Shown: positions 860-32,718 of the stretch, piece after piece
How positions within the stretch are numbered: position 1 is the first letter of the stretch
How the letters are laid out: the number at the start of each line of letters is the position of its first letter
IMG/VR virus record: IMGVR_UViG_3300030419_007641
Coordinates: 32,001 to 96,000 of that record
Direction: 5' to 3' (one strand)
Length of the DNA: 64,000 nucleotides
From: a virus
Position numbers and translations under genes: made by a program
The notes under the pieces: model-generated
The model's input: only the letters and a program-made list of their open reading frames with translations
What the model was told of the DNA's origin: nothing
The model's database searches: none

Positions 860-866
860 GTCTTTA
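812..866. repeat. 55-bp exact direct repeat, copy 1
   Basis: attctctcttaaaattttcgatgcttgtttgtcaaattcgttatccatgtcttta is identical to 1131..1185. Confidence 0.95.
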
Positions 867-1178
867 TTTATTCTTCTTTAAGTCACTAAAGATACCTTCT
901 GGTCCGTATAAATCATCCTTGTCTAGACGTGCTTTTTTAGCTATGTGCTTCAAATAGCCTATTGCTTGCTCTTTATCAGCATGATTATATTTACTGGAAG
1001 TGGCGATATCATTTACAATGTCTTGTAGATCAATCGTGGAAGCGCTTTCCATATCTCCGAGATTATTTTTAAACAGCTCAATATCTCTTTTCAGGTCATC
1101 ACTCCAACGCTCTGCAGAGATGTCACCTACATTCTCTCTTAAAATTTTCGATGCTTGTTTGTCAAATTCGTTATCCAT
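864..1178 (-). CDS. hypothetical protein with the same 16-aa leader MDNEFDKQASKILREN
   Basis: ORF track; N-terminus shared with 548..859. Confidence 0.75.
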   Translation of the reverse strand: MDNEFDKQASKILRENVGDISAERWSDDLKRDIELFKNNLGDMESASTIDLQDIVNDIATSSKYNHADKEQAIGYLKHIAKKARLDKDDLYGPEGIFSDLKKNK

Positions 1179-5577: not shown

Positions 5578-5653
5578 TGGTAGGAGCAGCGGGAGTCGAA
5601 CCCGCACTGGACGGATTTTAAGTCCGCTGTCTCTGCCGTTGGACTACACTCCC
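5578..5653 (-). tRNA. trnL: tRNA-Leu(TAA), 76 nt, short variable arm, CCA encoded
   Basis: GGGAGTGTAGTCCAACGGCAGAGACAGCGGACTTAAAATCCGTCCAGTGCGGGTTCGACTCCCGCTGCTCCTACCA folds as a cloverleaf. Confidence 0.92.
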
Positions 5654-5877: not shown

Positions 5878-5953
5878 TGGTGCGCCCGGCAGGATTTGAA
5901 CCTGCGACCTAACGATTATGAGTCGTGTGCTCTAACCACTGAGCTACAAGCGC
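5878..5953 (-). tRNA. tRNA with CAT anticodon, probably Ile2 (lysidine type) rather than Met
   Basis: GCGCTTGTAGCTCAGTGGTTAGAGCACACGACTCATAATCGTTAGGTCGCAGGTTCAAATCCTGCCGGGCGCACCA; the anticodon arm CGACTCATAATCG resembles E. coli ileX. Confidence 0.9.
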
Positions 5954-7006: not shown

Positions 7007-7082
<76 letters not shown>

Positions 7083-7128: not shown

Positions 7129-7134
7129 TAAATA
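7129..7134 (+). promoter_or_regulatory. late promoter TAAATA
   Basis: 5 nt before ATG 7140, the modal spacing in this genome. Confidence 0.7.
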
Positions 7135-7139
7135 CTAAT

Positions 7140-7478
7140 ATGAAACGTATTGGTGATAGAGAAGATCCTATTTGGAAAACATTCATTGAAAGTAAAAAGC
7201 CGGACTTCCTTGATTTTGACAAGGATGGCAACAAAGAAGAGCCAATGAAGGATGCTCTCAAGGATAAAGATATAGAACATAACTGAGCTACTCACGTAGC
7301 GCCGGTCGGTGCTGAAGAAAATGAGGAGTTCAGAGTTATTGATCATAGCTTAACGTCACAGGGAATAATTGAAGAGTACTATGTTGATGTTAATGGCTTT
7401 TTAGTGACGATGAAAGCTAGTGACGTTAAAATTATTCGCGAGCAATCTCATAAACATCCTAAGAAAAAGAAAAAATAG
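7140..7478 (+). CDS. candidate selenoprotein, 112 aa with in-frame TGA at codon 49; putative virion/internal head protein
   Basis: MKRIGDREDPIWKTFIESKKPDFLDFDKDGNKEEPMKDALKDKDIEHN*ATHVAPVGAEENEEFRVIDHSLTSQGIIEEYYVDVNGFLVTMKASDVKIIREQSHKHPKKKKK; TGA at 7284..7286; frame stays open to TAG at 7476..7478. Confidence 0.7.
7297..7314 (+). promoter_or_regulatory. candidate bacterial SECIS hairpin
   Basis: Stem (T)AGCGCC/GGTGCT(G), loop GGTC at 7304..7307, 17 nt after the TGA. Confidence 0.65.
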
Positions 7479-7483
7479 AATGA

Positions 7484-8956
7484 ATGAAGGCAAGCGAACA
7501 TAGTTATTATGCTCCGGTTGCTAATGTTGTTTATGTACCAGAACAGGACCCTATAGAAAATATAGTACGTCGACAAGAAAATCGTAGCAAAGCAATCTCA
7601 TTAGGCATTTCTATATGCATCATTGGTCTGTTAATGATGCTACTAGCATTTTTAACTATTGCCATTTTAAAAGATGAACAGATAGAATTAATAGTATCTG
7701 CGACACAGGGCCAAAAAGAAGTAAAGATTAATAAAAATACCTTTGCTACTTCTGTTCGCAACAGTAGACCCTCTAGACCTGATAGCAAGCCAGCTGATGT
7801 TATCGTATCTAATAATCTTTCAAATATATCATTACCGTCTGTTGATAGTTTAGCGCCAACTATAGGTACTAGTTTTAATGATGGGTTTGGCGCCGGTGGA
7901 TTTGGGACTGGTATTGGAGGCGGCTTTAGAGTACCTACAGCTATGGGAGGTAGATGTGGTACATCTGATAGAATTAATCGTTTAATTAAAGCAGGTGGTA
8001 AGAGAAAAATGGACACTCAGGTCTTAAATGCTCTGAGATGGATCAAATCTCAGCAGAAGCCGGATGGTTCTTTTGGTACAAAGTTTCCTATCGCAATGAC
8101 ATCGTTTGCTTTACTAGCATATAGCGGTCATTGTGAGACTGTTGATTCACCTGAGTTCGGTAAATCAGTTAAAGCTGCAATTGAGTATCTCTTGGATGTA
8201 TCAGATAAAGGTAAGGGATATATTACAACCTCTCGTGATCGTAACCTTTCATATGAGCATGGCATTGCAATGTATTCATTAGCAGAAGCTTATTCTATGA
8301 ATAAGAATGCTCGTACCTCTTTTAGGAGAATATCTCCTGCGCTTAAGGTAGGCATTCCAATAGTAATTGAAGGTCAGACAAATGGAGGTGGGTGGTTATA
8401 TTCCTATGGATCAAATGGTACAGGAGACTTATCTGTCTCTGGGTGGAATATACAAGCGTTAAAGGCAGCCGAGCTAACTGGCATTAAATTTTCTGGACTA
8501 GAAAGAGCCAAACAAAAAGCTGTCCGTTATTTGAAGTCAGCTGAAGATCCTAATGGCACTGATGGCTACTTTAGATATAGAGTAAATGATGGTCAACGAG
8601 GTAAATTATCTCTCACAGGAGTAGGAGCTTACAGCGCTAGAATGCTGGGGGCACCTTCGAAACTCGAAGACAAATCTTTAGATTTAATTATCTCTAAGAA
8701 ACCTAAATCATTTCCTCCTAACCAAGCATATGCTTGGTACTATCATTCTTTAGCAGCATTTCAAAAACAAGGTAACCACTGGAGGCAATATAACGATTCG
8801 TATCAAACACTAATATCTGAATCACAGCAGAAAGACGGGTCATGGCTTCCTTCCGGTGGTCATGGTCAAGTTGGACCTGATGGAGCATTATACTCAACAT
8901 GCCTCTGCACTTTAATGCTGGAGGTCTATTATAGATACCTACCCTCTTCTAAATGA
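7484..8956 (+). CDS. membrane-anchored prenyltransferase/squalene-cyclase-repeat (alpha-barrel) protein, PVC type
   Basis: TM helix, Gly-rich linker, then QW-like repeats QQKPDGSF, QTNGGGW and QQKDGSW, plus DLSVSGWNIQALKAA and YSTCLCTLMLEVYYRYLP. Confidence 0.85.
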   Translation: MKASEHSYYAPVANVVYVPEQDPIENIVRRQENRSKAISLGISICIIGLLMMLLAFLTIAILKDEQIELIVSATQGQKEVKINKNTFATSVRNSRPSRPDSKPADVIVSNNLSNISLPSVDSLAPTIGTSFNDGFGAGGFGTGIGGGFRVPTAMGGRCGTSDRINRLIKAGGKRKMDTQVLNALRWIKSQQKPDGSFGTKFPIAMTSFALLAYSGHCETVDSPEFGKSVKAAIEYLLDVSDKGKGYITTSRDRNLSYEHGIAMYSLAEAYSMNKNARTSFRRISPALKVGIPIVIEGQTNGGGWLYSYGSNGTGDLSVSGWNIQALKAAELTGIKFSGLERAKQKAVRYLKSAEDPNGTDGYFRYRVNDGQRGKLSLTGVGAYSARMLGAPSKLEDKSLDLIISKKPKSFPPNQAYAWYYHSLAAFQKQGNHWRQYNDSYQTLISESQQKDGSWLPSGGHGQVGPDGALYSTCLCTLMLEVYYRYLPSSK

Positions 8957-30300: not shown

Positions 30301-32718
30301 ATGGCACAGCGTACAATAACTTCCCCGGGCGTAGAACTTTTTGAAACTGATATTACACAAGAAGCGCCCACGCCAGGGGGGACTAATATATATGTCACCG
30401 GATTTGCACAGCAAGGCCCTGTAGAAGAAGTTCTTAGAATAAACTCAAAGCAGGATCTATTACGAATTTACGGTCATCCTACAAATTCACCAGAAAGATA
30501 TTTTTACCATACTATAACTCAATTGTTAGAATCTCCTTCTAACGTCTACACGGCTAGATTACCATATGGTTCTCATCTTGGTGATGGCTATGGATCCAAA
30601 TACGTAGCGCTCGCTTACCCCGTATCAGCAGTTGGTAATAACTATGCAACAGATTATAATACATTAAACTTTTCCGGAAGCGGGGTTTATGTTATAGGCG
30701 CGCCGGCTCACATTGAGCTTACACAAAATCAGTATTTAAGTGCAGTGGCCGGCACATTGTTTGATTGGAGCAATACAGGTGGAGGTGTTAAGGATTTTAA
30801 TCAAGGATCAGGGACTACAGTTAATGGAGTGTTATGTGCTTTAGGAAAAGCCGCAATAATCGTATTAAATAAATCTCAAACTACTATTGATGGAAATTTC
30901 CAGGGATATTATGTAGGTCTACAAGACAATTCTAATCTTAACCCTGCAGCAGATTTTACCAGTATAAAGAATGTTTATTCAGTAGATAAAAATAGTGGAA
31001 CTATTAATTCTGTTCTTTGTGGAAATGAGTATAAAAAGATACCCGCTACAACATTACAATTTGCAACTAGTTCCCCTGCCACAAATGGGTTAAATAATAG
31101 TATTTCCGAAGTAATGGAAAATATTACCGATTATGAAATTGACGGGGCTGGGTCTCGCGATGTATTAAGCCTAGGGGTGTTCAAGCTACGTAAGTCTATT
31201 TTTGCTACAGAAGCATTTAAACTAGATTATGTAGTAGATGACTCATTCGCGGGATCGATAAATTATTTTAGAAAGGAATTAAATCCTGACGGTGGTCCTG
31301 AGACCAGCGACTTTCTCGGTAATAAAAGCGATGCATCAAGAAATGTAAAAGTACTGGTAAACCCATATATATCTAATCAACTATCTGGCGGCGATGCATT
31401 AGACAGCAGTGGTAATCCAACAAAATGGATTAGGATATATAATAGCTCACTAGGCACTTTAATGGAAACCGCAGCTGGTAGAGCTGAGGCAGGGCTAAAT
31501 AATGCTCAATATGTTGACTTATCAGCCAAGCTCGGTGACCCACGGTTGGGATTAAGCGCTTATAACACAGACGTTGGACCTGATGCAGGTCAATTATTCC
31601 CTATCGGGGGGTATGTTGAGCCAATTTCAGATAAGCTTATTGGCGCTCTTCCGGAAAAAATTGACAGAGTTCTTAATAGGATAACTAATGATGAAGTATA
31701 TGATATTGATGTAGTTGTTGAAGGTGGTTTAGGTACTATATACGCTGCTAGTTGTGCAGCAAGTACAGACTATTATGATGAATTTAACACTAACTTATCC
31801 TTACAGCAAGCTGTAAATGGATTAAGAACGTCAGATAGTATATCAGGAGATTCCTTAACTCTTAGAAATAGTTACAACACTATTTTCCAAAAATTTGATA
31901 ACTTCTGCAAACCGCCTTATCTAGCGGGTGGTACTAGAGGTGATTGTATCTTTGTGGCAGATGTAATGCGACAAATTTTAGTAACAGGTCAAAATACAAA
32001 GGTTCTTGATAACAGAGAACTTAACTTCCAAAAAGATATATTATGGCCAATACGCCATCAATTTGAGTCTCAAAACACATCTTACGCAGCTGTTTATGGA
32101 CAATGGGCACAAGTTTTTGATGAGTTTGTAGGTGATCTAGTTTGGGTACCATTTTCAGGATATGCAGCTGCAGCAATGGCTAGGACAGACTCTATTGCTA
32201 ATCCATGGATTGCACCGGCAGGGTTTACCCGCGGGACAATTAATGCGACGGATATAGCAATTAATCCTAATCAGAAGCAAAGAGATGAATTATATAAGAG
32301 CAATATTAACCCGGTAGCGTTCTTCCCAGGTCAGGGGCAAGTTATATTTGGTCAAAAGACACTGAACAAAAAACCAAGCGCGTTTGATAGAATTAATGTA
32401 CGGAGATTATTCTTAGCATTAGAAAGACCTACTAAGAAAGCTTGTAGATTGTTTGTTTTTGAGCAAAATAATGAGTTTACAAGAACTAGAATTGTTAATA
32501 CATTAACCCCTATCTTCGAAAATGCAAAAAATACTGACGGTCTACATGACTACCTAATTGTATGTGATGAAAGAAACAATACTCAAGCGGTTATTAATGC
32601 AAATGAACTTAAAGTCGACATTTATATTAAACCAGTTAGGACAGCTGAATTTATTTTGGTAAGTTTCTATGCTACAAAAACAGATGCAAATTTTGAAGAA
32701 TTAGTATCAGGGTATTAG
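30301..32718 (+). CDS. gp18: tail sheath protein
   Basis: SPGVELFETD, WIAPAGFTRG, RDELYKSNINPV, GQKTL...SAFDRINVRRLFL, CDERNNT. Confidence 0.96.
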   Translation: MAQRTITSPGVELFETDITQEAPTPGGTNIYVTGFAQQGPVEEVLRINSKQDLLRIYGHPTNSPERYFYHTITQLLESPSNVYTARLPYGSHLGDGYGSKYVALAYPVSAVGNNYATDYNTLNFSGSGVYVIGAPAHIELTQNQYLSAVAGTLFDWSNTGGGVKDFNQGSGTTVNGVLCALGKAAIIVLNKSQTTIDGNFQGYYVGLQDNSNLNPAADFTSIKNVYSVDKNSGTINSVLCGNEYKKIPATTLQFATSSPATNGLNNSISEVMENITDYEIDGAGSRDVLSLGVFKLRKSIFATEAFKLDYVVDDSFAGSINYFRKELNPDGGPETSDFLGNKSDASRNVKVLVNPYISNQLSGGDALDSSGNPTKWIRIYNSSLGTLMETAAGRAEAGLNNAQYVDLSAKLGDPRLGLSAYNTDVGPDAGQLFPIGGYVEPISDKLIGALPEKIDRVLNRITNDEVYDIDVVVEGGLGTIYAASCAASTDYYDEFNTNLSLQQAVNGLRTSDSISGDSLTLRNSYNTIFQKFDNFCKPPYLAGGTRGDCIFVADVMRQILVTGQNTKVLDNRELNFQKDILWPIRHQFESQNTSYAAVYGQWAQVFDEFVGDLVWVPFSGYAAAAMARTDSIANPWIAPAGFTRGTINATDIAINPNQKQRDELYKSNINPVAFFPGQGQVIFGQKTLNKKPSAFDRINVRRLFLALERPTKKACRLFVFEQNNEFTRTRIVNTLTPIFENAKNTDGLHDYLIVCDERNNTQAVINANELKVDIYIKPVRTAEFILVSFYATKTDANFEELVSGY

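Follow-up and report, generated by a model that had tools for sequence, protein, structure and literature searches.

A predicted selenoprotein gene in an uncultured marine T4-like phage, with a conserved in-frame UGA and a bacterial SECIS-like hairpin

In an uncultured marine T4-like phage, a short late gene carries a single in-frame UGA, at codon 49, which is very probably decoded as selenocysteine (Sec), an assessment that comes from sequence comparison and has no experiment behind it. The gene lies in IMG/VR record IMGVR_UViG_3300030419_007641, from which we analysed a stretch of 64,000 nucleotides (positions 32,001 to 96,000; hereafter the window). Because relatives keep the UGA, cyanophage homologs have Cys in its place, and a SECIS hairpin follows it, a selenoprotein made with host machinery is the most likely explanation. 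An earlier note on this DNA had proposed a phage-encoded selenoprotein, and that reading is now supported by Cys homologs, a retained TGA, a co-varying hairpin, an otherwise normal code, and the lack of sel genes in the phage record. The features of the locus, in window coordinates, are as follows.

7129..7134, plus strand: T4-type late promoter core TAAATA, 5 nt ahead of the ATG
7140..7478, plus strand: predicted selenoprotein gene (Sec49), 112 aa, from its frame and orthologs
7140..7193, plus strand: N-terminal leader ending KTFIE, inferred from a loose likeness to the T4 capsid-targeting sequence and its gp21-type Glu cleavage site
7197..7262, plus strand: variable charged insert with the KPDFLD..DKDG motif, optional and not family-defining
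7272..7451, plus strand: conserved five-stranded SH3-like barrel (predicted), from a model, fold matches and alignment
7284..7286, plus strand: in-frame TGA, predicted Sec codon, codon 49, from comparison of homolog codons
7297..7314, plus strand: SECIS upper stem-loop with a 7-bp stem, a GGTC loop at 7304-7307 and GU at +19/+20 from the UGA, from folding and conservation
7484..8956, plus strand: PVC-type prenyltransferase/squalene-cyclase-repeat gene, membrane-anchored, outside the recoding unit, from a weak PF13243 match
5578-5653, 5878-5953 and 7007-7082, minus strand: tRNAs Leu-TAA, Met-CAT and Arg-TCT, respectively

The gene, its promoter and codon use in the phage genome

Re-reading the sequence bore out the architecture that the earlier note had described: a TAAATA at 7129-7134 separated by 5 nt from the ATG at 7140, only one in-frame TGA (7284-7286, codon 49), 63 open codons after it up to a TAG at 7476-7478, the ATG of the next gene at 7484, and a first in-frame ATG past the TGA at 7410. 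An in-frame GTG lies between the TGA and this ATG, at 7404. The promoter spacing had been credited to about 20 other late genes, a count that did not hold, as the window has 14 copies of TAAATA-N5-ATG and the genome 41; with these 41 cases, 5 nt is the modal TAAATA-to-ATG spacing. Most orthologs in three of the four TGA-containing clades described below (A–C) also have an upstream TAAATA. Those of clade D have a purine-rich leader instead and lie near primase and thyX, in a different T4-like group.

The source record comprises 196,877 bp at 37% GC, encodes T4-like structural and replication genes, and is estimated to be 93% complete; the domain encoded by the Sec gene occurs in it as a single copy. 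The two ends of the record carry diverged nrdA/nrdB copies (G000 C1:3374-7436 versus about 192,700-196,800; 83% over 4 kb), with a further 73% match near the record start. These duplicated ends possibly mark a join of two related phages, and the window is far from either of them.

The rest of the genome uses TGA as a regular stop, as had been inferred from the window: 42 of the 198 long ORFs end in it, open stretches past TGA stops are no longer than those past TAA or TAG, and TGG is used 756 times, which argues against a genome-wide code change. TGA 7284 is the sole one of 23 possible readthrough sites, all outside other long genes, at which a late promoter and a SECIS-like hairpin come together. 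The phage record encodes three ordinary tRNAs and a tmRNA, with no UCA-anticodon tRNA. The earlier note had seen no selC or selD in the window, and a search of the whole phage record likewise returned no tRNA-Sec over the cut-off and no SelD; five partial contigs of relative phages contained no tRNA-Sec. Immediately ahead of the Sec gene, on the opposite strand, is the Arg-TCT tRNA, an arrangement repeated in L001. On the downstream side, the prenyltransferase/squalene-cyclase-repeat gene starts 5 nt past the Sec gene, a linkage confined to clade A, with other neighbours elsewhere.

Conservation of the TGA and its counterpart Cys in homologs

The check suggested in the earlier note was a search for homologs, and its outcome favoured the proposal. 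In scans of marine metagenomes and IMG/VR, TGA occupied codon 49 in 140 of 140 homologous loci, as a rule accompanied by a co-varying hairpin, and TGG in 0 of 140, while in other homologs Cys aligned with the TGA. The 140 loci are redundant and reduce to 54 distinct sequences (36-nt contexts), which fall into four clades, ~45–55% identical to each other, from two T4-like phage groups. No homolog had TGG, or any sense codon other than one for Cys, at codon 49. In public databases such genes stand either as two separate ORFs or with Trp, which would be mis-calls if Sec is read there: gene callers divide some loci in two (using a TTG start in clade B), and the relatives retrieved by protein searches show W at the codon-49 column, which in each of six database proteins that we traced, covering all four clades, was TGA in the DNA.

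The frame downstream of the TGA is intact in all homologs and contains many synonymous differences, with pairwise codon differences of 1022 synonymous versus 463 non-synonymous in clade A and 8832 versus 8154 in clade B. The 16 codons that follow the TGA contain no ATG in any of 64 sequences (0/64), and at 18 homologous loci a second TGA is the true stop of the gene. Upstream, the proteins are wholly different between clades, except for the residues adjoining the TGA. In a tree, one branch (95/97) divides the TGA forms from the Cys forms, such that one origin of the TGA form suffices. Because the TGA sequences make up one clade, their conservation reflects this single origin and not independent gains.

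Cys was found at the TGA column in 65 loci (62 cyanophage-type and 3 marine), always as TGT or TGC. Two marine proteins carry H-A-C-A at the Sec-site motif, and a marine Cys homolog used as the query found the H-x-C-A domain in >200 cultured cyanophage records (267). Homology of the Sec and Cys families was supported by hhalign (91.7%, E 8e-7), by a profile HMM that was trained on TGA sequences alone and scored L173 at E 1e-12 and the best cyanophage at E 6e-5, and by the fold matches of the modelled domain, for which the top BFVD hits were cyanophage homologs (TM ~0.75). The earlier note had mentioned Cys homologs that combined the KPDFLD/DKDG motif with an HxCA domain; the Cys at the TGA position of an HxCA domain was indeed there, but the joining of the two elements was not seen in the Cys homologs read. 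About 70 unrelated phage proteins share the KPDFLD/DKDG motif alone with the window protein, and the insert that bears it is missing from most orthologs. Matches to a KPDYLD motif, which made up most of those from a full-protein scan, were rejected as homologs because this insert is promiscuous in unrelated proteins, and L074 was rejected as a chance match.

The cyanophage proteins of cluster T4-GC 715 (Syn33_183, Syn9 gp185 and P-SSM7 E3SNV6), annotated as hypothetical or 'cytidyltransferase', have the same domain as the window protein, in which H-x-C-A, the second and third His, the Gly and the Tyr are invariant. They differ from the window gene in having Cys for the TGA and no hairpin, and in that the domain lies mostly within charged proteins of 400–700 aa and unknown function. 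Syn33_183 (L221:2836-4374) is a 'cytidyltransferase' in RefSeq, yet the sequence read has no HxGH-type motif, and the name given to T4-GC 715 proteins appears to be borrowed from a neighbouring gene. A 'cytidyltransferase' reported in cyanophage virions was considered as support for packaging and rejected, the S-CREM2 virion 'cytidylyltransferase' being another protein; because the reported virion protein is the neighbouring true nucleotidyltransferase, it was dropped as support for a virion location.

The hairpin and decoding of the UGA

Computing the hairpin anew reproduced the one first described, with a 7-bp stem (7297-7314) and a GGTC loop that starts 18 nt past the UGA. The hairpin begins 11 nt past the UGA, has 72% GC in a gene of 37% GC, and includes the rare codons GTC, GCG and CCG (9%, 11% and 18% of their codon families, respectively). 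Its folding energy of −9.9 to −14 kcal/mol was only modestly better than that of shuffled sequences (z −1.0 to −3.1, depending on the segment folded), and Rfam had no match to it at the gathering score. Because the folding energy alone is unremarkable, the case for a SECIS rests on conservation.

According to the bacterial SECIS consensus, an apical loop of 3–9 nt caps a stem of 4–16 bp and lies 16–37 nt from the UGA; its first two bases read G(G/U), its outer bases are often paired, and its consensus is N-G-U-N-N (PMC13188914). The criteria also ask for an MFE at or below −7.5 kcal/mol, and the window hairpin met all of them, with its 4-nt loop, 7 bp, +18 position and MFE. The minimal SECIS of E. 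coli fdhF requires a bulged U17, and has G23/U24 and a stem 11 nt from the UGA (PMC8659212). As the earlier note had pointed out, the GU of the window hairpin is one nt closer than that of fdhF, and the bulged U is absent. With no U17 bulge and with GU at 22/23, the hairpin does not meet the strict criteria for the fdhF-type subtype; it is, as predicted from its sequence, an element that works like the fdhF SECIS but belongs to another subtype.

A GU-loop hairpin rule was passed by 51 of the 54 distinct TGA sequences, by 0 of 36 Cys sequences, and by 130 of 6641 genomic TGAs (2.0%). This rule is looser than the published criteria, and some of the orthologs that pass it are above −7.5 kcal/mol; indeed, hairpin stability is weak in some clades. 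The permitted distance range was widened after the data had been seen, and the 51/54 pass rate is therefore partly fitted; the same rule was used on all controls. The three failing TGA sequences keep the GGTC loop and have a mismatch beside it. Clades differ in their stems and share the GU, at +19, +22, +23 or +24. The outer loop bases of clades B and D form the one compensatory pair, swapping jointly between G-C and A-U, with a Gly-to-Ser change, and in the stem C-G alternates with U-G. Overall, 98% of the cells in the hairpin alignment pair, a control that is inflated by related sequences, and third codon positions are frozen within the stem and variable in its flanks. Synonymous recoding of the same peptides yields a hairpin in only 0–9% of cases for clades B–D versus ~43% for the window's clade A, in which the peptide itself does much of the work.

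By analogy with known bacterial Sec insertion, the mRNA, inferred to be made late in infection from the TAAATA promoter, would present the GU loop of its hairpin to host SelB carrying Sec-tRNA(Sec), and UGA49 would be read as selenocysteine, so that the 112-aa protein is finished; when Sec is short, the ribosome would halt and leave a 48-aa stub. The phage would give only the signal in cis and would depend for SelA, SelB, SelC and SelD on a host that uses Sec, probably one of the Verrucomicrobiota, with Sec49 taking the place of the cyanophage Cys within the SH3-like barrel.

Other fates of the codon can be imagined. A near-cognate or special tRNA might read the UGA as Trp or Cys, with the hairpin acting as a generic stimulator, which would give a fixed short:long ratio without selenium. 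The absence of Sec genes from some candidate host lineages and the weak hairpin of some clades speak for such readthrough; however, homologs never have TGG and have Cys as their sole sense alternative, conservation falls on a GU loop exposed at SelB distance and not on stem stability, the Cys homologs have no hairpin, and the phage record holds no UCA-anticodon tRNA, all of which make it improbable. The notion that TGA means Trp genome-wide or in late genes (a code 4-like arrangement, in phage or host) draws on the W shown by database entries at this position, but each W that we traced was a gene-caller translation of TGA, and in a genome with 42 of 198 long ORFs ending in TGA, 756 TGG codons, and TGA stops that resemble TAA and TAG stops, it has almost nothing left to recommend it.

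If the TGA were instead a true stop, the gene would make a short peptide, and the downstream domain would be reinitiated or untranslated, as might be supposed from the ordinary use of TGA as a stop elsewhere in the genome and from the way in which gene callers split some loci, with the TTG start in clade B. Such a stop would cut the first beta-strand and part the invariant H47 from the remaining fold; moreover, no in-frame ATG occurs within 16 codons in 64 of 64 sequences, early alternative starts are missing from the window's clade, and the upstream parts differ wholly between clades save for the TGA-adjoining residues. We consider termination very unlikely. A sequencing error or a recent nonsense mutation in a pseudogene can practically be dismissed, as evidenced by the same TGA in independent assemblies and many marine samples and by the conserved downstream frame; judged from these comparisons, TGA 7284 is neither. 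Decoding as Sec is thus the reading kept in what follows.

The protein, known selenoproteins and candidate hosts

Across 36 diverse Sec and Cys sequences, H47, U/C49, A50, H69, G75, Y80 and H104 are invariant; both termini of the protein are charged and variable. A model of residues 45–104, built with a nine-sequence alignment, is a barrel with a pLDDT of 85.8, for which PDB fold searches found only generic SH3/KOW/Hfq-type barrels (Z<5, E>0.5). The window protein contains no CxxU or UxxC motif. The combination of three His with the selenol (or thiol) of residue 49 is suggestive of a metal site (inferred, geometry unchecked), and we lean slightly toward the inference that the three invariant His and the Sec/Cys bind one metal ion.

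The capsid-targeting sequence (CTS) of T4 is MKTYQEFIAE (PMC8442874), which the MKTYKEF or MKTYNEF start of clade D orthologs clearly resembles; the resemblance is weak in the window's clade, and other late genes of the window have leaders similar to that of clade B. T4 IPI–IPIII (PMC9026906, PMC8442874) are small charged late proteins with a CTS, to which the CTS-like heptapeptide of clade D and the KTFIE near the N terminus of the window protein can be compared. Beyond the leader no likeness to them was found, the leader of the window protein is internal and degenerate, and packaging is not shown. That this leader sends its protein to the prohead, to serve as a core or internal component, is an inference for which the balance tips marginally to the negative. 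The T4-GC 715 cluster was absent from the examined portions of a virion-proteome table. A virion location of the product is inferred only, and the product may be degraded in maturation or left unpackaged. The tandem late genes at 548-859 and 864-1178 (minus strand) have an identical 16-residue N-terminal leader, like that of the clade B Sec proteins, which is likely a shared prohead-targeting signal.

Bacterial genes read with SelB, of which E. coli fdhF is the prototype, share with the window gene an in-frame UGA at the Cys of homologs, a 3′ stem-loop, and a GU at the start of the loop, and the window gene meets every sequence criterion for a bacterial selenoprotein that could be tested, except the strict fdhF subtype. 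It differs from the bacterial genes in being phage-encoded, in having a late promoter, and in having no sel genes in its record, and its product is not a Trx-fold protein or a CxxU/UxxC redox enzyme. Among 119 catalogued prokaryotic selenoprotein families (PMC13188914) there was no name or motif match and no HxUA family; the window family is not among the GOS_A–C selenoproteins and is absent from the GOS dataset; and the window protein had no match above cut-off in NCBIfam or Pfam, with no NCBIfam model for it. The words phage, virus and viral do not appear in the 2026 review of those 119 families (PMC13188914). The known viral selenoproteins are the glutathione peroxidases of molluscum contagiosum and fowlpox viruses (PMC8310308), which, like the window gene, use a viral UGA decoded by host Sec machinery, with the fowlpox SECIS also within the coding sequence (PMC8310308). 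These enzymes, however, were captured from the host and use a eukaryotic SECIS (PMC8310308), whereas the window family has a bacterial SECIS and an unrelated fold and was found in phage-like contexts only. Selenoprotein catalogues are limited to cells and two poxviruses, and our literature search, whose scope left out most subscription journals, agreed with the earlier note in finding no paper on a characterised phage selenoprotein.

Were the Sec reading true, phages would use the 21st amino acid of their hosts for a gene of their own, and a non-oxidoreductase fold would join the selenoproteins, for which cultured cyanophages hold a natural control with Cys. The gene would also be a marker for host prediction because the host must have selABCD. 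The fullest version of this picture, in which a widespread family of marine T4-like phages has a phage-specific, non-captured selenoprotein that is decoded by host SelB, packed into the head, and equipped with a His3-Sec metal site, giving particles that contain selenium and a late output tied to the selenium status of the host, is tentative and on balance doubtful.

Clues to the host come from an RpoD-like sigma factor of the phage and from a pair of its genes, one DUF1549/DUF1553 and the other DUF1501. The best DUF1501 matches were in Verrucomicrobiales and Opitutae (43–48%). Three Verrucomicrobiales genomes among the best (G001–G003) encode SelB, tRNA-Sec, and a SelD that itself contains an in-frame TGA, and two Opitutae matches are without that Sec machinery. 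G002 has all of SelA/B/C/D and, out of 301 Verrucomicrobiota genomes, holds the best match (43%) of the gene adjoining the Sec gene; SelA is present in 29 of the 51 genomes of its family and in only 17 of the 301 Verrucomicrobiota genomes. In G002, the SelD SECIS matches the window element in its unbulged 7-bp stem, in the +18 position of its GGTC loop and in its CC-GGTC-GG core; those of G001 and G003 lie further out. Two selD matches in G002 (C297 and C94; L405 and L410), one of them partial, have the same Sec codon and SECIS. The genomes with the top RpoD matches, and several with close DUF1501 matches, had neither SelA nor tRNA-Sec, with margins of 1–2% identity and genomes that are possibly incomplete, and tmRNA and RpoD comparisons gave no host resolution below the phylum. 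The idea that predicted hosts should carry selABCD was thus met in part, in that candidate Verrucomicrobiales have the full Sec machinery and other close matches do not. Because all host-gene identities are low, the host is known to its probable phylum only: on sequence evidence alone it is probably a Verrucomicrobiota species, which is not proven. Candidate hosts capable of using Sec exist, and it is not shown that the true host is among them.

The loci L284:1235-4307 and L285:1247-2407 hold the PVC-type DUF1549/DUF1553 and DUF1501 pair together with the RpoD-like sigma factor, an EF-hand protein and a gene resembling an outer-membrane barrel. The phage tmRNA (L284:6278-6694; G000 C1:15777-16193, minus strand) has a predicted tag of 21 residues, about twice as long as the tags in 16 Verrucomicrobiota genomes. 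A clade D phage encodes, by eye, an amino-acid ABC transporter substrate-binding-like protein (L220:731-1933), which may hint at a second group of hosts.
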